Assembly: GCA_013204355.1 (NCBI GenBank)
Contig: JABMOA010000006.1
Location: forward strand, 1 to 42,385
Direction of reading: 5' to 3'
Origin: Candidatus Woesearchaeota archaeon
Lineage (GTDB): Archaea; Nanobdellota; Nanobdellia; Woesearchaeales; GW2011-AR9
DNA: 42,385 nucleotides
Numbering within the stretch: position 1 is the stretch's first letter; the number at the start of each line of letters is the position of its first letter. Both the position numbers and the translations under genes were made by a program. This document shows positions 6,222 through 34,710 of the stretch, piece after piece. Below the pieces are notes generated by a model, which ran no database searches, had not been told where the DNA came from, and saw only the letters and a list, made by a program, of their open reading frames with translations.

Positions 6222-6554
6222 ATGAAATTATACAGAGGCATGAGTGATGTAGAATTATCTGATTGGGTTGAAAATGAAAGATCAATTCCAAAAGAAAAAT
6301 ATTTTACCTGTTGTCCAGAAGAAGCAATTGGTTTAGGAAAATTCTATTTGAGAAGTGGAAATTTAATTATTCTTCAAGTTCAAGCAGATGATTATTTTAC
6401 TGCATTTCATAATACTGATTCAAAAGGAGCAGGATATTGGTATGAAAATAAAAATAAAATATCTTTGGATGAAATTATCTTTGATATTCTCACCCCAAAA
6501 GAAGCTATGGCTTATAACGTTCCATTGTCCGTGGGAAAGGGATCGCATCTTTAA
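6222..6554 (+). CDS. Hypothetical 110-aa protein
   Basis: ORF only. Its 3' end overlaps the asnS 3' end by 50 nt (convergent). Confidence 0.4.
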   Translation: MKLYRGMSDVELSDWVENERSIPKEKYFTCCPEEAIGLGKFYLRSGNLIILQVQADDYFTAFHNTDSKGAGYWYENKNKISLDEIIFDILTPKEAMAYNVPLSVGKGSHL

Positions 6555-7806
6555 TTGAATCTAATCCACAAATCCATTTGATTACACGTTCTACACCTAA
6601 ACCAAAACCACCGTGTGGAACACTTCCGTATCTCCGTGTGTCAAGATAAAATTCGTATTCTTCTGGTTTCTCGCCATCAGCAATAAGACGTTGTTTAACT
6701 TTTTCAATATCATGTTCCCTATGAGACCCACCAATAATTTCGCCATGTCCTTCTGGTGCTAAGAAATCACATCCTTGCACAACTTTTGGATCCTTAGGGT
6801 CTTCAGTCATGTAGAATGCTTTTACTGCTTTTGGATAATGTGTTACGATTATTGGAACATCATATAATAATGTTAATTTTTCTTCTTCAATTGTTCTAAG
6901 ATCTTTACCCCAAGGTACATCCATTTCACATTTATCTTTCAGAATCTTAAGTGCTTCTGTATATGTCATTCGTATAAATGGTTTTTTCACAGTTGGTTCA
7001 AGAAGTTTCCAATCTCGTTCAATTGTTTCTAATTCTGGTTTGTGTTTTTCTAATACTACTTTGACTACATGTTTTAGTAATGCTTCTCCGTGATCTTGAA
7101 TATCTTTAAAGTCAGCCCACGCCATTTCCATTTCTGCATGCCAGTATTCTGTTAAATGTCTACTTGTTTTTGATTTTTCTGCACGGAAAGATGGTGAGAT
7201 CGTATAAATTTTTTCTAATCCAAAAATTGCTGGTTCTGCATACAACTGCCATGTTTGTGCTAAGAACACATCTTTCTTTCCAAAATAGTCAACGGAAAAT
7301 AAATCTGAACCACCTTCACATTGGACTGCTTGGAAGATTGGGGAATGATATTCATAGAACCCTGCTCCTTTGAAATATTCATCAATTGCGCCAAAAACGG
7401 TTGATCTGATTTTAAGAATTGCAATCATTTTTTGTGAACGTAACCATAAATGTCTATGGTCTGCAAGATGTTCAATTGATGTATCTTTTGTAATTGGAAA
7501 TTTATCAGATGTTCCCACAATGTCTAACTTTTCTACTTGTACTTCAAATCCTGTTGGTGCGCGTTCATCTTTCTTAATTTCACCGGTAATCATGATAGAG
7601 GATTCTACTTGTAACTTATCAATATCATCCCATTGTTTCTCAAATTGATCTCGTTTTAAGACACACTGAATAAGTTGTGTAGAATCTCTAAGTACAATAA
7701 ATTTAAGTTTAGAACTTCCTCGTTCTCTATGAACCCAGCCTCGTAGGGAAACTTTTCCTGTGCCGATGTCCATTGCGTCCTTGATTTGAATGTATTTTGT
7801 TGCCAT
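6505..7806 (-). CDS. asnS: Asparaginyl-tRNA synthetase (class IIb)
   Basis: FRAEKSKTSRHLTEYWHAEMEMAW, KAFYMTEDPKDPKVV, LAPEGHGEIIGGSHRE and RRYGSVPHGGFGLGVERV match archaeal AsnRS rather than AspRS signatures. Confidence 0.85.
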   Translation of the reverse strand: MATKYIQIKDAMDIGTGKVSLRGWVHRERGSSKLKFIVLRDSTQLIQCVLKRDQFEKQWDDIDKLQVESSIMITGEIKKDERAPTGFEVQVEKLDIVGTSDKFPITKDTSIEHLADHRHLWLRSQKMIAILKIRSTVFGAIDEYFKGAGFYEYHSPIFQAVQCEGGSDLFSVDYFGKKDVFLAQTWQLYAEPAIFGLEKIYTISPSFRAEKSKTSRHLTEYWHAEMEMAWADFKDIQDHGEALLKHVVKVVLEKHKPELETIERDWKLLEPTVKKPFIRMTYTEALKILKDKCEMDVPWGKDLRTIEEEKLTLLYDVPIIVTHYPKAVKAFYMTEDPKDPKVVQGCDFLAPEGHGEIIGGSHREHDIEKVKQRLIADGEKPEEYEFYLDTRRYGSVPHGGFGLGVERVIKWICGLDSIKDAIPFPRTMERYKP

Positions 7807-7846
7807 ATTTTGTTATATTTTATGATATTATAAAAAGGTTTACCCC

Positions 7847-9460
7847 CTAAACTGATTCTACAGGTTGTTCATGAACTTTTACCGCACGTCCAGAAGGGTC
7901 TGCCATTCCTTCAAATAGTTTACTCCAACGATAAGCTGTTGGTGAAGAGCATGCAATTGAAGGACCGACTTCAACGGTTAATATTTCATCTTCTGTGGGA
8001 TATTTATCTTCAAAAATTGATCTATAAAGATAAGCTTCTTTTGTATCAGGTGATTGAATAGGGAATCGTTGTTTTACATCAACCATCATTTGATCAGTCA
8101 CCATTTTTTCAGCATACTCTTTTAATGAATCTATCCAACCATAACCAACACCGTCAGAAAATTGTTCCTTTTGTCGCCATAAAACTGATTCAGGGATATA
8201 ACCTTCAAATGCTTTACGAAGTACATATTTTTCTGGTTTATCGCCACCACACATTTTATCTTGAGGGTCAAAACTCATTGCATAATCAAGGAAATCTTTT
8301 CCGAGGAAGGGTACACGAATTTCTATACCCCACGCCGCCATGGATTTGTTCGCACGTAAACAATCGTATTTACTTAGTTTCATTAATTTTCGTACAGTTT
8401 CATCATGAAATTCTTTTGTACTTGGAGCCATATGAAAATACAAATATCCTCCAAAAATTTCATCAGCACCTTCACCTGAAAGAATCATCTTGATTCCTAA
8501 ACTTTTAATTTTTCGTGCCATTAAGTACATTGGAGTGGACGCACGAATTGTTGTTACATCGTAGGTTTCAAGATGGTAAATTACATCATGTAATGCGTCT
8601 ATTCCTTGCTGGGCCGTAAATGTAAATTCGTGGTGTTTGCTCCCAATATGTTTTGCAACTATTCTTGCAAATTTTACATCAGGCGAGCCTTCTAACCCTA
8701 TTGAAAATGAATGAAGGCCTGGACGTACTTTAGCTGCTATTGAAGCTATAAGAGATGAATCTAACCCTCCTGAGATTAATACACCATAAGGTACATCTGA
8801 CATTAATTGTTTTCTAACAGAAATTTCTAATTCATCACGTAATTGTTTTAGTGAAACAGGAATAGTTGGATGTTCAACAGCCCATTTAGGTTTATACCAT
8901 TGGATAAATTCTTGTGTACTTCCAAGGAAATAATGTCCTGGTGGGAATTCTTTGATGCTGGTACAATATTTTAGAGCTTTCATTTCACTTGCTATATGGG
9001 TTGTTCCTTGGTCATCCCAACCAATATATAATGGTACAATTCCCATATGATCTCGTGCAATGAAATATTCTTTAGTTCTAGGGTCATAAATTGCAAAAGC
9101 GAAAATACCGTCTATTTTTTCCAAAAATTGTGGACCAAATTCATCATAGAGATATAGTAATATTTCACAATCAGATTTCGTTTGCCATTGATGTGGTTTT
9201 GTAAGTAGAGTTTTCAATTTTTGATGATCATATATTTCTCCGTTTGCAATAAGAATACGTTGTTTTGTGGTATCATAGAGAGGTTGAGCTCCATGATGGA
9301 CGTCAACAATGGATAATCGTTCATGTATTAAGATTGAATAGTTATCACTATAAATCCCACTTTCATCAGGTCCACGATGACGAATTTTTGATGCCATCTT
9401 TAAGGTTTTCCCCCTTTGAGTCTCATCCTTTATTCCAAATAATCCAATTATACCACACAT
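7847..9460 (-). CDS. asnB: Asparagine synthetase (glutamine-hydrolysing)
   Basis: N-terminal MCGI nucleophile, SGGLDSS PP-loop, 537 aa. Confidence 0.9.
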   Translation of the reverse strand: MCGIIGLFGIKDETQRGKTLKMASKIRHRGPDESGIYSDNYSILIHERLSIVDVHHGAQPLYDTTKQRILIANGEIYDHQKLKTLLTKPHQWQTKSDCEILLYLYDEFGPQFLEKIDGIFAFAIYDPRTKEYFIARDHMGIVPLYIGWDDQGTTHIASEMKALKYCTSIKEFPPGHYFLGSTQEFIQWYKPKWAVEHPTIPVSLKQLRDELEISVRKQLMSDVPYGVLISGGLDSSLIASIAAKVRPGLHSFSIGLEGSPDVKFARIVAKHIGSKHHEFTFTAQQGIDALHDVIYHLETYDVTTIRASTPMYLMARKIKSLGIKMILSGEGADEIFGGYLYFHMAPSTKEFHDETVRKLMKLSKYDCLRANKSMAAWGIEIRVPFLGKDFLDYAMSFDPQDKMCGGDKPEKYVLRKAFEGYIPESVLWRQKEQFSDGVGYGWIDSLKEYAEKMVTDQMMVDVKQRFPIQSPDTKEAYLYRSIFEDKYPTEDEILTVEVGPSIACSSPTAYRWSKLFEGMADPSGRAVKVHEQPVESV

Positions 9461-9563
9461 TTTAATCCTCCTATATCTGAAGATGTTTTGGAAATCATTA
9501 TTTCCATATCATCCGTTATTTATAATATTCAAGAGTGAGATTCTTTTTAAGCGTGTTTCAAAA

Positions 9564-9627
9564 ATAATGGAAAAATACTCCATTATTACGGAAAGTATAT
9601 AAATAAGTGGAACATATGTTCCATTAT
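9564..9627. promoter_or_regulatory. Divergent asnB/lrp control region with a TATA box and two inverted repeats (candidate Lrp operators)
   Basis: ATAATGGA-n7-TCCATTAT (9564-9586), TATA tatataaata (9596-9605), and the perfect 16-bp palindrome TGGAACATATGTTCCA (9608-9623). The palindrome abuts the ATG at 9626. Confidence 0.45.
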
Positions 9628-10069
9628 GAATTATACACCAGACGAGAAAGATAAAAAGATTTTAGAGATATTAGAAGAACATGCTGATTACCCTACAAGA
9701 AAGATTGCAAAAAAGACATTATTGCCAATCACTACGGTCCACAATAGGATCACAAAGTTACGTAAGGAAGGTATCATCAAAAAGTTTACAATTGAACTTG
9801 ATTATGCTAAAGTAGATTTAGGTCAGCTTGCATATATCCTTGTTTCCACAAATTTGCAAGCACTTCGTGAGAAAAAAAGAACTCAATATGATGTGGTGAA
9901 GGAAATTAAGAGGTTAGGAGTAGTACGTGCTGATATTGTATCTGGAGGAACAGACATTGTTGTTATTGTTAGAGTTAAAGATGTTTCTGCCTATGATAAA
10001 TTTCTTCTGGGAAAATTACAGAAGATTGAAGGGATTGATAAAACACAAACGTTGATGGTCATTCATTGA
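9626..10069 (+). CDS. Lrp/AsnC-family transcriptional regulator
   Basis: N-terminal HTH (DKKILEILEEHADYPTRKIAKKTLLPITTVHNRITKL) plus a C-terminal RAM/AsnC ligand domain; 147 aa. Confidence 0.85.
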   Translation: MNYTPDEKDKKILEILEEHADYPTRKIAKKTLLPITTVHNRITKLRKEGIIKKFTIELDYAKVDLGQLAYILVSTNLQALREKKRTQYDVVKEIKRLGVVRADIVSGGTDIVVIVRVKDVSAYDKFLLGKLQKIEGIDKTQTLMVIH

Positions 10070-10099
10070 GGGATTATTTTAAGTGTGCTAAAACTTGTA

Positions 10100-10350
10100 C
10101 TGTAACATTAAATTCTTTGAAATGTTTCATCGGTTCTTGAACGGCATGTGGACTTCTATCAACTGTTGTGAGAATTACGCCTTCGGATGCAAGAATAATC
10201 CCGAGTAACCATTCGAAATTCCTAATTCTTAAAAAAACTTTGGTTTTAGTTATTTAATTTTATCTAAAATCCATCTTCCTTTCTCTGGCACAATTATGGA
10301 TATTTTTTTGATAGATTCGTATTCAAGTTTTTTTAGTTGTTCTATATCCA
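10100..10350 (-). pseudogene. Decayed copy of the 5' ~255 bp of the SAM-methyltransferase gene at 14575..15105
   Basis: Colinear nucleotide similarity to 14850-15104. The minus-strand translation MDMDIEQLKKLEYESIKKISIIVPEKGRWILDKIK then hits a stop, and no long ORF remains. Confidence 0.75.
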
Positions 10351-10403
10351 TATCCATGATAGTTCTAGGAATGATATAAACTTTCCAAAATTTTAATTGA
10401 TAC

Positions 10404-11975
10404 TTATTCTTTGGGTTTTCTAAATTCTATGATTTTCTCTTTAGAAACAACACGAGGTTCGCTTGGCCCTTCATACATAATAGCATAGACTTTACCCACA
10501 TGTAGATCTCTGTAGGTTCCTTCAATTTTGGTGATTTCATCTCCAACCTGAACAACAAAATAATTCTCTTGAAGATGGTTCCTTCCTGTCTTTTCATCTA
10601 AAAAAATATCTAATTTATGGTCTAATACCAAAAAAGGAGGAGTCATATAAACTACAGATTGTTTTATATCTTCTGGGGGTTCGAGTCCAGTTAATGCATA
10701 CACCTTTCTTCCCTGCGTTTCAAGAAGATTTTTTGGATTTATAGTAACACCACTAATATCTTTATAATCACAATACCCAATCACCTCTTGATCTAATGAA
10801 GGTTCTATTTTTTTTCTATCAGTTGTGTTTAATGCTTTAAAATCTTTAATTATACCATATGGAATAATCGCAGATAAAGATCCTATAAAAATTGTTATTA
10901 ATCCTGTGATTGTAATTCCAAGAGCAATTCCAAAATTTTCGGGACCAGAATTTACAATTTTCTCAAAAAGTTCATAAGTTACTCCAGCACCAAGAATTGA
11001 ACCTGTTAATAGAGCAGGAAATAATATAGCTTCACCCCTTATTGATTTCCTCCGAAACGGATGATTTTCACTATAGAGTCTTAAAACATCTTTGGGTGTA
11101 TAATCTTTATGCCATGCATTTTGGATTGCAAGTGTTTGTTGATCTAATGTTATAATGTTTGTTCTTGGTGGTGTTTGTGTGCTGTGAATACTCGGGGAGA
11201 TATTTAGTTCATAACGATCTTGAGGATTTTCTGCAAGAAGCATCTTTAATGTGAGTTTAAGTTCAGGTGTTAATCTAGAAAATGATTCAAGATCAGGACG
11301 CCACTGAGGGTCATGATTGTTTAATCCTTTGTTTGTTACAAGTGCAAAAAGTGTTGCGCCTAAAGAATACCTATCAGTTGCAGTTGTTAGTCGGTCTCTG
11401 TTAGAAGGATCATGTTGTTCTGGGCTCCAATAAGGAATGGTTCCAATCCCCATACTTTTGGTATCTGTATCTTCGCCATCTAGTTTTGCAATTCCAAAAT
11501 CTATGATTTTAACAATACCTTGATTTGTGACCATTATATTTTTTGGACTAATATCTCTGTGAATTATCCCTCTTTCATGAGCTGCATCTAAGCCAAAGAG
11601 TGCTTGATTGCAGAGATCTTCTAATTCTTTATTTGTATGAAGGTGTCCCCTATCTAATCTTTTTTGTAAGGATTCTCCTTCTACCCATTCAAAGGCAATA
11701 TAATGTTTTGGCACACCACGAGAATCTGTTTCTTGCCATGCATCTTGAAGATTAACAATATTGGGATGATTTAAATCTCTTGCAATGCTAGCTTCACGTA
11801 AAAAACGATCTATGGAAAAATTATCCTCAAGCACCATTTCCTTAACTGCATGAATTTCTCCAGATTCTGTAATTCCCTTATAGACAACTCCATGATGTCC
11901 TCTTCCTGCAAAAATTAATGAGGTATAACGCTCATTTGTTGTTCTTGATGATAATTCCAAATAAGAATCAGTCAT
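10404..11975 (-). CDS. Membrane-anchored Hanks-type Ser/Thr protein kinase (catalytic motifs intact)
   Basis: GRGHHGVVYKG, AVKEM, HRDISPKNIMV, DFGIAK and PYWSPEQ. Two Gly-rich TM helices lie around residues 320-385, followed by a ~140-aa C-terminal domain. Confidence 0.85.
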   Translation of the reverse strand: MTDSYLELSSRTTNERYTSLIFAGRGHHGVVYKGITESGEIHAVKEMVLEDNFSIDRFLREASIARDLNHPNIVNLQDAWQETDSRGVPKHYIAFEWVEGESLQKRLDRGHLHTNKELEDLCNQALFGLDAAHERGIIHRDISPKNIMVTNQGIVKIIDFGIAKLDGEDTDTKSMGIGTIPYWSPEQHDPSNRDRLTTATDRYSLGATLFALVTNKGLNNHDPQWRPDLESFSRLTPELKLTLKMLLAENPQDRYELNISPSIHSTQTPPRTNIITLDQQTLAIQNAWHKDYTPKDVLRLYSENHPFRRKSIRGEAILFPALLTGSILGAGVTYELFEKIVNSGPENFGIALGITITGLITIFIGSLSAIIPYGIIKDFKALNTTDRKKIEPSLDQEVIGYCDYKDISGVTINPKNLLETQGRKVYALTGLEPPEDIKQSVVYMTPPFLVLDHKLDIFLDEKTGRNHLQENYFVVQVGDEITKIEGTYRDLHVGKVYAIMYEGPSEPRVVSKEKIIEFRKPKE

Positions 11976-12158
11976 TTTTAAAAACCTCTGATTTAATTAG
12001 TAAAGAAAAAAGTTTATGTATTGTAAATAATATGTGTGTGTTCATTGTTCTACTCTATAACACACCTCTAAAAACCTTATCATCTTAAAACAAGCTAATA
12101 CTTATAAATATTATGGACATTTTTGAAGGATATTTTTTTTCAAAATAAGTTGCAAAAT

Positions 12159-12734
12159 TTATTGTTGTTTCCATAAATGCACATAATCATCAAATTCTGC
12201 TTTTAGGATTGAATGGATTGCATCATAGGGAAGATGCATGGAAGTTCTATGTGATTTTTCATGTATTCCTCCTACTGAAATATCCACTAATCTTCCTTGT
12301 AATTCTGGTTTATTTAAAACAATTAATCCTGTAATTTCGTAGCCCATGCTTGATGCAAGAGGAAATGGGGTACAGGTTCCTGGTTCCATGTGTAGAGGTA
12401 ATCTTTCTGCAGCACAAGGTCTATATCCTTTTGCTTTTTTGTGTTTAATTCCTAATATTTCTGCAAAAATATCTTCAGTTGGAATCCTACCCTCTTCTGG
12501 CGTGATGATCCCCCATAGTTCTCCGTGCCCTCTAAAATAGAGAGCTTTTACCATTTGATTTAATGTCCAATCTCCAGGATGTGTTTCTTGTAAAAGGTCT
12601 AATTTTTCTTGACAGGTAGACGTAGATTTGGAATGATAAATTAATTTTGGTTCTAAACCTAGTAATTTTGCATGATCCATGACGTATTGTTGTTCAAGAT
12701 CTAATTCTAGTTTTGTTTGTGTTGTTAGTTGCAT
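12159..12734 (-). CDS. YbaK/ProX-like (aminoacyl-tRNA trans-editing deacylase fold) protein with an N-terminal extension
   Basis: VKALYF (conserved Lys), GIITPEEGRIPTEDIFAEILG, EPGTCTPFPL and VDISVGG align by eye with YbaK motifs KTL, G..GG.SP.G and v.vSgG. Confidence 0.5.
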   Translation of the reverse strand: MQLTTQTKLELDLEQQYVMDHAKLLGLEPKLIYHSKSTSTCQEKLDLLQETHPGDWTLNQMVKALYFRGHGELWGIITPEEGRIPTEDIFAEILGIKHKKAKGYRPCAAERLPLHMEPGTCTPFPLASSMGYEITGLIVLNKPELQGRLVDISVGGIHEKSHRTSMHLPYDAIHSILKAEFDDYVHLWKQQ

Positions 12735-12762
12735 TTTGTTTGTGTTGTTAGTTGCATTTTGT
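12711..12762. repeat. Tandem duplication, 23-bp unit x 2.26, spanning the start codon of the YbaK-like gene
   Basis: ttttgtttgtgttgttagttgca repeats with period 23. This creates a second, out-of-frame ATG (12757) that opens a 10-codon uORF. Confidence 0.7.
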
Positions 12763-12944
12763 GTTCTTCTTAAATTAAAATGGTTCTAGTTAAAACCTAT
12801 TTAAATTTACTCCAAAATTAATGGCATTTAAGAGTAGGATCCAAATACATTAATCACTATAATAGAGTAGTAAATATGGGAAACTTTATAAACTAAATCA
12901 TTATTTTTCTATAATATTGATATATTTAAGATATTATAAGGCAT

Positions 12945-14516
12945 ATGACAGAGATAGGAACTTTTGGAAATGGAAGGATTGAAGTTGGGGATAGGGTTTA
13001 TTCTCTAGATGAATTACTAGGCCAAACTTCTCGTTCAAAGGTTTGGAGAGCTAACAATGGTGAAAAGGATGTTGCTCTTAAAATGATGATTCTTAATACA
13101 GATGCTGGACTTTCAGATATGGAAGATCTCAATGTTATTGGAGATGTTGAAAGTAGAGTAGCAGTATACCGAAATTTAAATCATCCTCATATTACTAATT
13201 TAGAAGATTTCTTTTTTATTGATAGTGGAATTGTGGAATGGCCAGTTGTTGTCCGAGAATATGTTGCAGGTCAAACTTTAGATGAAAAAATGGATAAAGG
13301 TTACATACCAACTAATGAAGAAGCTCTCAACATATTTAAAACGTTACTTAACGTTACTAATTATTTAGAATCATTTGGCAGAGAAATTGTTAATAGAGAT
13401 ATTAAACCCTCCAATATTTTGATTGGTGAAGAGGGGACAATTAAATTAACTGACTTTGAAATCTGTACAACTTCAGCTGGTACAACTACTGGGGGTCGTG
13501 GAACTTTTGAATATATGTCACCTGAACAAATGTTAGGCGGAACACCAACTTCTATGTGGGACAGATATTCAATTGCTAAAACCATGGAACATCTTCTAAC
13601 TGGAAAAACTCCAGGATTTGGTAAACAAGTTGTTTTGAATGGTGGTATATTGGATGGTATTTTATCAAAAATGACTGATCCAGATCCAAAATTTAGATAT
13701 AATACTTCAAAACAAATTTTAGCAGAATTAGAATTTAATGAAAAGACCGGAACTCAACTTGTGCAGGTTAAACGTCAAAAGATTGTTTCTTCAAATGAAG
13801 TAGAAGTACATAAAACTGTTGTAGATACAAAAAGAGATTTATGGTTATTGGACCAGTTTGGTGAAAAAGATTTAGCAGTAGGACTATATGATTTTATGCA
13901 AAGAGTTGAAGGGACTCCATTATATAAAAGAGCAGCGTTAGTAGCATCCGCTGTAAGAATGGCGATAGGAGAAGATAGAATTGATTCCGAAATATTAGAT
14001 CAGTTAAAATACTTAAGTCAATGTAAAATTTATTCAAGAGATATTGTGGTAGTTGATAAACCATGGGGAGAATTAGTTACTGATTTAGTGGGCTATAATG
14101 GTTATTGTCTTCCTGAGGAAACAAACATCCCATATTTTTTTGAAAATCTCAAAAAATGGAATTTTCATGGTCTGGATAACAAGTCATGTGAAGCTTTACA
14201 CAAAGATATTCAATCAATTTCGGATCGTACCTTTTTGGGATCAGTGGTGGGGTTGCTTGTAGGAGGTTTAGGTTTTGGGTATTCTGTTTATGAATTATCT
14301 GGGAGTTCGTATGGAGCATTTCTTGCTGGTATTGTTGGTGTAATTGGTTCAGGTGTTGCTGGTGCTAGGTATAGCACAAAAGTTGAATCTGCGAAGAGAT
14401 TAGAATATGAAAAATCTTCTCAAAAGAATCCTTGTTTGAAAACTATTTCAGGACATGAGGTTATATTGTATACATTCTTACCAGAATATATGGGAGATCC
14501 ATTAAAATCATCATAG
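12945..14516 (+). CDS. Membrane-anchored protein-kinase-like protein with degenerate catalytic motifs (putative pseudokinase or atypical kinase)
   Basis: The kinase fold is recognisable (VALKMM, DIKPSNILI, EYMSPEQ), but HRD is NRD (13392-13400) and DFG is DFE (13452-13460). A Gly-rich TM hairpin lies near the C-terminus. Confidence 0.8.
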   Translation: MTEIGTFGNGRIEVGDRVYSLDELLGQTSRSKVWRANNGEKDVALKMMILNTDAGLSDMEDLNVIGDVESRVAVYRNLNHPHITNLEDFFFIDSGIVEWPVVVREYVAGQTLDEKMDKGYIPTNEEALNIFKTLLNVTNYLESFGREIVNRDIKPSNILIGEEGTIKLTDFEICTTSAGTTTGGRGTFEYMSPEQMLGGTPTSMWDRYSIAKTMEHLLTGKTPGFGKQVVLNGGILDGILSKMTDPDPKFRYNTSKQILAELEFNEKTGTQLVQVKRQKIVSSNEVEVHKTVVDTKRDLWLLDQFGEKDLAVGLYDFMQRVEGTPLYKRAALVASAVRMAIGEDRIDSEILDQLKYLSQCKIYSRDIVVVDKPWGELVTDLVGYNGYCLPEETNIPYFFENLKKWNFHGLDNKSCEALHKDIQSISDRTFLGSVVGLLVGGLGFGYSVYELSGSSYGAFLAGIVGVIGSGVAGARYSTKVESAKRLEYEKSSQKNPCLKTISGHEVILYTFLPEYMGDPLKSS

Positions 14517-14574
14517 AAATTCGGTTTGACAACAAAATTTTAGTATATAACCTTGGATTAAATTGTTCTAATTA

Positions 14575-15105
14575 TTATTTCAATATGCTATAACTCATCC
14601 CATTTCCAATTTTAATCATTTCTGTATTTAATTTTGGATGTACTTGAATCTTTTCTTTGAATTCGTAACATCCTGGCAAGTCTATATTATCTGCGACTAG
14701 CACACCATCTTTTGAAAGAATTTTGATGCAATTTTCTAAAACGTTAATGTATTCTTTATTTGCAAAATCTAAAAGGATCATGTCAAACCTTATATTTTCT
14801 TGTGCAAGTTCTTCCACATATTTCACACCGTCACCAAGAATTACGTGAGCTGTAACATTGAATTCTTTGAAATTTTTCATTGCCTCCTGGACCGCATGCG
14901 GACTTGTATCAACTGTTGTGAGAATTGCGCCTTCAGATGCGAGAATAATGCCAGAATATCCGTTTGCTGTTCCTAATTCTAAAATTGTTTTTGGTTTTAG
15001 TTGTTTAATTTTATCTAAAATCCATCTTCCTTTTTCTGATCCGATGATAGGAACTTTTCTTTCTATGGATTCTTGTTCAAGTTTTTTTAGTTGTTCTATA
15101 ATCAT
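14575..15105 (-). CDS. Class I SAM-dependent O-methyltransferase (COG4122-like)
   Basis: ILELGTANGYSGIILA is SAM motif I, followed by ILLDFANKEY. The start is set at MIIEQLKK (15105) rather than 15147. Confidence 0.8.
   Translation of the reverse strand: MIIEQLKKLEQESIERKVPIIGSEKGRWILDKIKQLKPKTILELGTANGYSGIILASEGAILTTVDTSPHAVQEAMKNFKEFNVTAHVILGDGVKYVEELAQENIRFDMILLDFANKEYINVLENCIKILSKDGVLVADNIDLPGCYEFKEKIQVHPKLNTEMIKIGNGMSYSILK
14850..15104. repeat. Right copy of the ~250-bp direct repeat (the intact 5' end of the methyltransferase gene)
   Basis: Pairs with 10100-10350 in the same orientation, roughly 80% identity by eye. Confidence 0.75.
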
Positions 15106-16692: not shown

Positions 16693-16870
16693 TTGGGCGC
16701 TGTCCCAAAAGGCGGTAATTTGTATACTACCTGCAATAGGCACATACGAGAAAAGCTTTGCTTTTCTGGATGTCCCAAAAATCTTTGATTTTCGTGACAT
16801 TTTTTCTTTCTCTAGAAAAAATAATCGTGCCGGCACGTAGTATACATTTTTATTCCTTTTGGGACGGTGC
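16693..16870. mobile_element. MITE-like nested-palindrome element, copy A (178 bp, carries a 55-bp internal insertion)
   Basis: Terminal inverted repeats GGGCGCTGTCCCAAAAGG / CCTTTTGGGACGGTGCC. Internal GTATACTAC...GTAGTATAC arms, a GTGCCGGCAC palindrome and a TTTCTCTAGAAAAA palindrome. Homologous to 27215-27336 in the opposite orientation. Confidence 0.55.
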
Positions 16871-16873
16871 CGT

Positions 16874-27163: not shown

Positions 27164-27214
27164 TAAAATATATTTAAATGGATTATCATAACTATTTTTA
27201 TAAATTTCTCAAAT

Positions 27215-27336
27215 GGGCGCTGTCCAGAAAGTCATAAAAATGTATACTACGTGCCGGCACACTTATTTTTTCTAGAAAAAGAAAAAATGTGCCTATTGCA
27301 GGCAGTATACAAAATAGAGAATTTCTGGACAGCACC
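27215..27336. mobile_element. MITE-like nested-palindrome element, copy B (122 bp)
   Basis: Terminal inverted repeats GGGCGCTGTCCAGAAA / TTTCTGGACAGCACC. The core is the reverse complement of copy A without the 55-bp insertion. Confidence 0.55.
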
Positions 27337-27379
27337 TACAAAAGAAAAAGTATTTATAAGAATAATATTTCCTTAAAAC

Positions 27380-34626: not shown

Positions 34627-34710
34627 TGTGGACGGCAGGGTTTGAACCTGCGTAGGCACTAAGCCACTGGGTCCTAAGCCCAGCCCGTTTGACCGCTCCG
34701 GCACGTCCAC
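34627..34710 (-). tRNA. tRNA-Leu (anticodon UAG), class II, no intron, CCA not encoded
   Basis: GTGGACG-TG-CCGGAGCGGTCAAACGG-G-CTGGG-CTTAGGA-CCCAG-long variable arm-GCAGG-TTCAAAC-CCTGC-CGTCCAC-A. Confidence 0.9.

Follow-up and report, generated by a model that had tools for sequence, protein, structure and literature searches.

The asnC and asnA genes of Escherichia coli form a divergent regulatory unit, and AsnA is a paralogue of asparaginyl-tRNA synthetase (AsnRS). To our knowledge, all the characterised enzymes of the INS superfamily, which includes the trans-editing deacylases ProX and YbaK, have either tRNAPro-related errors or Ser/Thr-tRNAs as their targets. The catalytic elements common to all of them are a GXXXP loop and a conserved Lys (PMC11286415), and the superfamily falls into nine clusters, three of which, ProXp-7, -8 and -9, are uncharacterised (PMC11295145). 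Here we analyse a stretch of 42,385 nucleotides (the window), a contig from a metagenome-assembled genome (MAG) of a Candidatus Woesearchaeota archaeon, in which the gene of a YbaK/ProX-like protein of 191 amino acids (aa; NQV90884.1) lies between the genes of two Hanks-type Ser/Thr kinases, K1 (NQV90883.1) and K2 (NQV90885.1), all three bracketed by a direct repeat of the 5' end of an O-methyltransferase gene. We know of no characterised member of the family to which the 191-aa protein belongs. A preliminary description of the window took the repeat for the scar of a Campbell-type insertion or of a duplication-insertion event and suggested that the three genes may be one acquired signalling module.

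Our results point to a different history. The stretch is probably the product of a lineage-specific reshuffling of an asparagine module conserved in DPANN archaea, with the repeat as a by-product of that process and with three enclosed genes that do not make up one system. The ancestral module would have combined a regulator of the Lrp/AsnC type with a putative aminoacyl-tRNA deacylase of YbaK/ProX fold, one of the asparagine synthetases AsnA or AsnB, and AsnRS. Upon its reshuffling in this lineage, two unrelated genes of membrane-anchored Hanks-type Ser/Thr kinases would have landed on either side of the YbaK-like gene, and the repeat of ca. 260 bp would have remained behind as an incomplete copy of the adjacent O-methyltransferase gene, covering its first 88 codons. 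What we infer in this reading is the sequence of events, the deacylase activity with its substrate and the activities of the kinases.

The gene context of the YbaK-like family (YbaKl) was sampled at 8 loci that an exact look-up retrieved and at 18 loci of GTDB species genomes, which after merging of duplicates gave ca. 22 distinct loci. In ca. 10 of these the gene is linked to asparagine genes, namely those encoding Lrp/AsnC, AsnA or AsnB, AsnRS or an aspartyl-tRNA synthetase (AspRS) of the non-discriminating type (ND-AspRS), in arrangements that include Lrp/AsnC divergent from YbaKl-AsnB (L005/6), Lrp with YbaKl-AsnA (L007/27 and L021), Lrp with AsnA-YbaKl-AsnRS (L028), AsnB-YbaKl-AsnRS (L029), an AspRS of the non-discriminating type in AspRS-YbaKl-AsnRS (L009/10), Lrp with YbaKl..AsnRS (L019), AsnRS with YbaKl (L024) and Lrp with YbaKl (L025). 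An AsnRS orthologue is thus found beside the YbaK-like gene in L009, L019, L024, L028 and L029, AsnB adjoins it in L005 and L029, and the Lrp/AsnC-family regulator is its conserved divergent partner in the relatives. The left flank of the window carries AsnRS, AsnB and Lrp, the same genes that are neighbours of the family elsewhere. Since this flank and the relatives have Lrp, AsnB and AsnRS in common, the YbaK-like gene is an old resident of the neighbourhood and not cargo, and the recurrence of the linkage in several different gene orders argues that it is kept by selection rather than inherited as synteny.

A second context was observed at 8-9 loci of Pacearchaeota and Nanoarchaeota (L004/L016, L011, L014, L015, L017, L018, L020 and L022), where the order VKOR-Bud32-YbaKl is followed by a convergent gene of a ParA/MinD ATPase. 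The Bud32 proteins encoded there match TIGR03724 with 180-213 bits (cutoff 125). Bud32, a small kinase/ATPase, is a subunit of the KEOPS complex of tRNA modification and not a Hanks-type signalling kinase. The neighbours of the family (AsnRS, ND-AspRS, AsnA and Bud32) are all tRNA-centred.

The 191-aa protein has no match in Pfam or NCBIfam and does not reach the threshold of PF04073 (tRNA_edit), a profile that weakly matches 4 of the 24 family members (best E 8.6e-5). Its 23 homologues, mostly from DPANN archaea, are 36-54% identical to it, and in the alignment of the 24 sequences the positions K63, G119-T-C-(T)-P123, S153-x-G155 and S165-M-H-x-P-Y are invariant; K63, G119 and P123 occur in 24 of 24, and the loop of the window protein reads, from sequence alone, G119-T-C-T-P123. 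The family profile weakly matches APE2540, with 'VKalYf' aligned to its Lys motif 'VKTLIV' and K63 in line with the Lys of APE2540. An AlphaFold2 (AF2) model built on the family alignment reached a pLDDT of 93.2 and a pTM of 0.89, and in a Foldseek search of the PDB with this model ranks 1 to 36 were all ProX, YbaK or the INS domain of prolyl-tRNA synthetase (ProRS), with E down to 5.7e-8, probability 1.00 and a target-normalised TM of 0.63-0.72. The YbaK/ProX likeness pointed out in the preliminary description is in this way upheld by a confident model, by the top 36 structural matches and by the presence of both the Lys and the GXXXP loop.

The putative deacylase function is deduced from fold, motifs and neighbours, according to which the 191-aa protein most likely hydrolyses a mischarged tRNA tied to Asn/Asp charging. 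A more detailed proposal is offered only tentatively, as one possibility of low probability: that the protein represents an uncharacterised INS clade dedicated to the asparagine/aspartate branch of tRNA charging. It would then be a candidate free-standing Asp-tRNA(Asn) deacylase, or a deacylase for other mischarged tRNA(Asn/Asp), which would let reduced archaea endowed with AsnRS tolerate an ND-AspRS without an amidotransferase and would share with asparagine synthetase its control by an AsnC-like regulator; in this lineage alone, the YbaK-like protein might additionally be under two membrane kinases.

Some further observations concern the same gene and its family. Bacterial members at 36% identity are found in a Betaproteobacteria MAG (L023) and in Variovorax boronicumulans (L026), the Variovorax gene being placed after that of a MocR-like regulator or aminotransferase dependent on pyridoxal phosphate, and these members may derive from inter-domain transfer. 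In the window, the start of the YbaK-like gene lies in a 23-bp tandem duplication, whose upstream copy (ATG plus the first 20 nt of the gene) opens an out-of-frame open reading frame (ORF) of 10 codons, MQLTTQTKCN followed by a stop. This short ORF overlaps the real start of the gene and could affect its translation initiation.

A scan of metagenomes with the methyltransferase rendered one relative, L037, a contig of 1.5 kb whose methyltransferase is 87% identical at the aa level and ca. 82-84% identical in nucleotides. In L037 the 5' end of the VTT gene, the methyltransferase gene and the 20 bp that follow it correspond colinearly to window positions 15310-14553, and the very next base continues as window 7841-7313, which corresponds to the promoter and gene of AsnRS, so that the methyltransferase abuts AsnRS. 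Because of this 14553/7841 junction, what differs between the two lineages is 7842-14552, a block holding AsnB, Lrp, the methyltransferase fragment, K1, the YbaK-like gene and K2 and excluding the right repeat copy, and not the interval bounded by the repeats. Against this one relative, the repeats therefore do not coincide with the presence/absence boundaries, a point on which the preliminary description had proposed a synteny comparison. The ends of the block at 7842 and 14552 have neither a target duplication nor inverted or terminal repeats, the best word that they share being a 9-mer. The adjacency of AsnB and AsnRS and of the YbaK-like gene and AsnRS in distant relatives favours a loss or relocation in the L037 lineage.

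The direct repeat itself is real. It is composed of three colinear direct blocks (10093-10202/14843-14952, 85%; 10200-10307/14951-15058, 77%; 10303-10351/15057-15105, 84%), and blastn aligned 10100-10346 with 14850-15100 at 82.1% identity over 251 columns with 4 gaps (E 4.6e-64). The alignment score of 241 bits, against a maximum of 33.7 bits for 50 shuffled queries, disposes of low-complexity noise as its origin, a possibility that the preliminary description had raised beside an estimate by eye of ca. 80% identity in the same orientation, and makes this the strongest repeat of the entire window. Read as minus strand, the left copy corresponds to the O-methyltransferase gene from its start codon through codon 88 and translates as MDMDIEQLKKLEYESIKKISIIVPEKGRWILDKIK with a stop at the end; it contains two in-frame stops, a 1-nt deletion causing a frameshift and a 3-nt deletion, and was rightly described as decayed. 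It ends 23 bp from the stop codon of the convergent Lrp gene. The homology starts within ca. 10 bp of the ATG (10355/15105), upstream of which the sequences of the two copies are unrelated. The open frame of the methyltransferase reaches 15147, and the ATG at 15105 is favoured by homology with the left copy and with L037 as well as by the gene call in L003; an exact look-up of the 190-aa methyltransferase ORF for strain variants returned no record.

The left copy, the intact copy and the L037 methyltransferase were compared over 251 sites, the methyltransferase of L028 (49% aa identity) being too distant in DNA to root the comparison. The left copy has 27 private substitutions, distributed 10/7/10 over codon positions 1/2/3, the intact copy 12 (1/0/11) and L037 20 (6/3/11), and at 7 further sites (0/0/7) all three sequences differ. 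The changes in the intact gene are nearly all at third positions, so that it can be considered to be under purifying selection, whereas the even distribution in the left copy indicates drift free of coding constraint along the whole of its private branch. The third-position branch lengths are near-equal (10 for the left copy, 11 for the intact copy and 11 for L037), from which the duplication would date back to roughly the time of the split from the L037 lineage. This pattern fits a local duplicate that was dead on arrival and has been decaying neutrally since its origin. Two routes would be the most economical ones: either a unit of ca. 4.75 kb (10356-15105) was duplicated in tandem and its left copy was then largely removed by one deletion, or one duplication step copied no more than the 5' fragment.

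The two kinases have little in common beyond their class. Residues 1-258 of K1 constitute a complete, canonical Hanks-type Ser/Thr kinase domain with G24RGHHG, K45, H139RD..N146, D159FG and S184PE, so that the naming of K1 as an active-type kinase agrees with every canonical motif. Residues 6-258 are 69% identical to P0026, a kinase of 798 aa from a relative that is encoded at an unrelated locus beside SecE and Spt5, and the similarity ends abruptly at 258. When residues 260-523 were searched exhaustively with phmmer in 1.84 billion representative proteins, only K1 itself was recovered. The possibility that this tail came from K2, from the closest relative of the kinase or from a different frame was rejected, as tblastn and tblastx searches of the fetched loci and of the rest of the window came out empty. 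At this DNA composition an open frame of 264 codons has a chance probability of ca. 7e-10, and its codon usage is normal; the tail is on these grounds a real, if orphan, coding region. We regard K1 as a presumably active kinase with a novel tail.

K2 lacks the canonical G-loop, HRD and DFG motifs, in place of which it has GQTSRSKV, N150RD and D170FE; its description as degenerate is nevertheless an overstatement, since the beta3 Lys, the catalytic Asp, the Asn and the Asp of DFG are kept. K46, D152, K154, N157 and D170 do not vary within its subfamily (P0146-P0150, with kinase domains of 40-51% identity), which also conserves GQTxxSxV, (V/N/D)RD, D(F/L)E, a C-terminal hydrophobic hairpin and an 'AFLPEY' tail. 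This conservation points to a kinase that is atypical yet clearly under selection, and the kinase subfamily to which K2 belongs is rich in paralogues. Its AF2 model, built on six sequences, reached a pLDDT of 60, with the C-terminal half below 60. One more member of the subfamily adjoins an AAA ATPase. A lineage-specific expansion was observed at L033/L035 (JGI 3300009374, Ga0118720_1003221; 8001-16132 in L033), where an array of four K2-type paralogues of 563, 551, 558 and 471 aa is interrupted by a HEPN/MNT pair, that is, a toxin-antitoxin-like pair with a nucleotidyltransferase.

As stated in the preliminary description, both kinases have 523 aa and a Gly-rich hairpin of two hydrophobic segments (314-334 and 346-378 in K1, 429-449 and 454-476 in K2). 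In contrast, the proposed signature shared by the two hairpins and the permutation of the non-kinase modules had to be rejected. BLASTP aligned K1 and K2 at 32% identity over 170 residues of the kinase domain and at nothing outside it; the similarities of the hairpin and of VIGYCDY to LVGYNGYC gave E values of 0.9-30, and hhalign of the C-terminal half of K1 against the K2 family gave a probability of 0.4%. The kinases thus share no homology outside the kinase domain by BLASTP, phmmer or hhalign, and their equal length is a coincidence.

Several points weigh against the history that we propose. L037 is the sole close relative, it is only 1.5 kb long and possibly chimeric, and the difference of 6.7 kb can be an insertion in the window lineage as well as a deletion in that of L037. 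The move that took the YbaK-like gene across Lrp is left without a reconstructed order of events, and the boundary of the duplication within ca. 10 bp of a start codon is not explained by any of the mechanisms tested. It is somewhat surprising that a compact genome has kept a neutral pseudogene of 260 bp up to a divergence of ca. 18%. The deacylase activity is deduced, like its substrate, only from fold, motifs and neighbours, and the fact that the trio is not conserved is also compatible with a functional link particular to this lineage.

This last point leads to a reading in which the three genes cooperate at present, the membrane kinases phosphorylating the YbaK-fold protein or being scaffolded by it, so that a membrane signal would be coupled to aminoacyl-tRNA quality control or to the supply of asparagine. 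The genes are indeed tightly juxtaposed, with the YbaK-like gene and K2 diverging from a common promoter region and K1 on the same strand as the YbaK-like gene, 183 bp downstream of it. The YbaK fold is known in signalling proteins, SadB (9qzk) and Maqu_0641 (3mem) being among the Foldseek matches of the 191-aa protein (E ca. 1e-3 to 1e-2), and the family adjoins the gene of a small kinase/ATPase, Bud32, in Pacearchaeota and Nanoarchaeota. However, the kinase, YbaK-like and kinase set did not recur in any of the ca. 21 other distinct loci with a family member, where tblastn detected no kinase of the K1 or K2 type in the fetched flanks; conversely, neither the loci of the K2 family nor the K1-like locus has a YbaK-like or any other tRNA-editing gene. 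Bud32 belongs to tRNA modification, as said above, and the tail of K1 is unique to this organism, so that comparison provides no evidence for the link. We therefore hold cooperation among the three proteins to be unlikely.

Even less probable is the acquisition of K1, the YbaK-like gene and K2 as a signalling cassette through Campbell-type insertion mediated by a methyltransferase fragment on the incoming DNA. The bracketing of the three genes by a direct repeat of a host-gene fragment, with the remainder of the methyltransferase gene, a kinase (-), the YbaK-like gene (-) and a kinase (+) between the copies, was confirmed by the ORF map and is what first suggests it; moreover, the region differs between the window genome and L037, and no relative has an orthologue of K1 or K2 at the corresponding position. 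Against it, the YbaK-like gene has ancestral neighbours in the flanking genes of Lrp, AsnB and AsnRS, no such kinases were detected in the flanks fetched for its other loci, and the segment that differs from L037 is 7842-14552 and not 10356-14842. No integrase, recombinase or transposase was found in the Pfam calls of the genes within ca. 10 kb, nor was there a tRNA gene or an attachment (att) target at either boundary, or a target duplication or inverted repeat. The GC content is 27-37% throughout the window, and 31-35% in the test for deviation from the host, without any composition step at the region of interest, the codon-usage z values of K1, the YbaK-like gene and K2 (-0.42, +0.36 and -0.30) are within the window norm, and no relatives of the K2 family or of the YbaK-like family were found in the viral contigs of IMG/VR. 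In addition, one crossover would give two full or chimeric copies, and not an intact upstream copy with a 5' fragment downstream; because the truncated copy is downstream of the intact one, the Campbell-type model needs an extra deletion. Finally, the left copy has no third-position excess (10/7/10) and hence no detectable functional history in a donor, and its substitution pattern gives no sign of a past as a working gene in foreign DNA. The interpretation of the repeat as the scar of a duplication or insertion event is consequently retained as regards a decayed duplicate and abandoned as regards Campbell-type integration, and with it the idea of the trio as one acquired module.

An assembly artefact of the MAG, in which repeats can mislead assemblers, is hardly credible as the origin of the repeat or of the gene order, since the copies, only 82% identical, are too divergent for collapse or mis-joining, and a JGI contig covers the whole segment, and two independent Logan assemblies span the Lrp-left copy-K1 and K2-methyltransferase-VTT junctions, all at 100% identity.

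The features of the locus are collected in Table 1.

Table 1. Features of the asparagine and kinase locus in the window, with the evidence on which each call was based
Feature	Position	Strand	Evidence
Asparaginyl-tRNA synthetase, AsnRS	6505..7806	-	NF003037, 493 bits vs cutoff 414
Block present here and missing between methyltransferase and AsnRS in L037	7842..14552		Comparison with L037
Asparagine synthase B, AsnB, glutamine-hydrolysing	7847..9460	-	NF006949, 782 bits vs cutoff 499
Lrp/AsnC-family regulator	9626..10069	+	PF13412 and PF01037 above threshold
Left repeat copy, pseudogene fragment of methyltransferase codons 1-88	10093..10355	-	Repeat scan, blastn
Kinase 1, K1 (NQV90883.1)	10404..11975	-	Pfam Pkinase PF00069, 139.4 bits vs cutoff 31.7
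191-aa YbaK/ProX-fold protein of the INS superfamily (NQV90884.1)	12159..12734	-	Model, Foldseek, motifs
23-bp tandem duplication spanning the start codon of the 191-aa gene	12711..12756		Repeat scan
Kinase 2, K2, atypical Hanks-type (NQV90885.1)	12945..14516	+	PF00069, 89.7 bits
Intact class I O-methyltransferase dependent on S-adenosylmethionine (PF01596), 176 aa	14575..15105	-	53.8 bits vs cutoff 22
Right repeat copy, codons 1-88 of the intact methyltransferase	14843..15105	-	Repeat scan, blastn

Other repeats are found elsewhere in the window. A near-perfect palindrome of ca. 170 nt occupies an intergenic region at 27193-27364 and folds at -64.3 kcal/mol (z -9.6 vs shuffles); partial inverted copies of it, 82-88% identical, are located at 16696-16745 and 16797-16871, in another intergenic region, which separates the genes of EEP and rhodanese. 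The palindrome, without a match in Rfam, looks like a palindromic repeat element or one similar to a miniature inverted-repeat transposable element. A direct repeat of 46 bp (34536-34581/34615-34660, 97.8% identity), with the copies 33 bp apart, overlaps with one of them the 3' end of a tRNA-Leu gene (34627-34710, minus strand), which was the sole match in an Rfam scan of the whole window. This is an att-like partial duplication of a tRNA with nothing between the copies; no integrase is encoded near it, and its neighbours are the genes of a class I LysRS and of a protein without a Pfam match.

The repeat-bounded 'cassette' is therefore of little importance, being a partial gene duplicate from local reshuffling around three genes that are not a recurring system, and both it and the repeat can be considered ordinary. 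The part worth following is the Asn-linked clade of the INS family, since an INS member linked to Asn/Asp would, if true, add a new editing specificity, and the hypothesis is concrete and testable. K1, in which a canonical kinase domain is joined to an ORF of 264 residues without detectable relative, provides a small example of how new proteins are built in reduced archaeal genomes.

When the locus is compared with known systems, some resemblances turn out to be superficial. Defence systems (MADS and PD-T4-6) were rejected because of generic domain matches only. As for MADS, PADLOC matched mad6 to both kinases and mad2 to the methyltransferase at the domain level only: NCBIfam MAD6 (NF047741) scored 102 and 46 bits vs a cutoff of 460, mad2 was matched at 272-395 of its 492 positions only, and none of the other MADS genes is present at the window locus. 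With Campbell scars and att-flanked islands the region has in common that, on one side of a variable stretch, a truncated host gene forms a direct repeat, but it differs from them in having no recombinase, tRNA target or composition signal, in the position of the repeats off the presence/absence boundaries and in a truncated copy that lies on the downstream side.

The kinase domains of K1 and K2, both above the Pkinase threshold, resemble those of the bacterial Hanks kinases PknB, StkP and PknA, StkP and PknB being their best solved relatives. Unlike these, however, both proteins are without PASTA or any other known sensor domain, and a Gly-rich hairpin of two helices takes the place of the single transmembrane helix and extracellular domain; in the K2 subfamily, moreover, GQTxxSxV, (V/N/D)RD and D(F/L)E stand in place of the GxGxxG, HRD and DFG of the bacterial enzymes.

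The 191-aa protein has the same fold, the Lys and the GXXXP loop of the INS trans-editing deacylases ProXp-x (2cx5/2z0k), ProX (8huz/2dxa), YbaK (1dbx) and APE2540 (1wdv), although its identity to the solved members is 11-18% and it is longer by ca. 35 residues. The family further differs from those deacylases in that its neighbours are AsnRS, ND-AspRS, AsnA or AsnB, Lrp/AsnC or Bud32 and not ProRS, and in being found mostly in DPANN archaea. The regulator in the window, unlike E. coli AsnC, falls far under the cutoff of the NCBIfam AsnC equivalog (NF008384, 53.5 vs 227 bits) and can be assigned only to the general Lrp/AsnC family. The relatives of the locus nevertheless resemble the E. coli asnC-asnA unit in that an Lrp/AsnC regulator diverges from an operon with an asparagine synthetase, to which the archaeal operon, unlike that of E. 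coli, adds the YbaK-like gene and often AsnRS, in an arrangement that has been broken up in the window.

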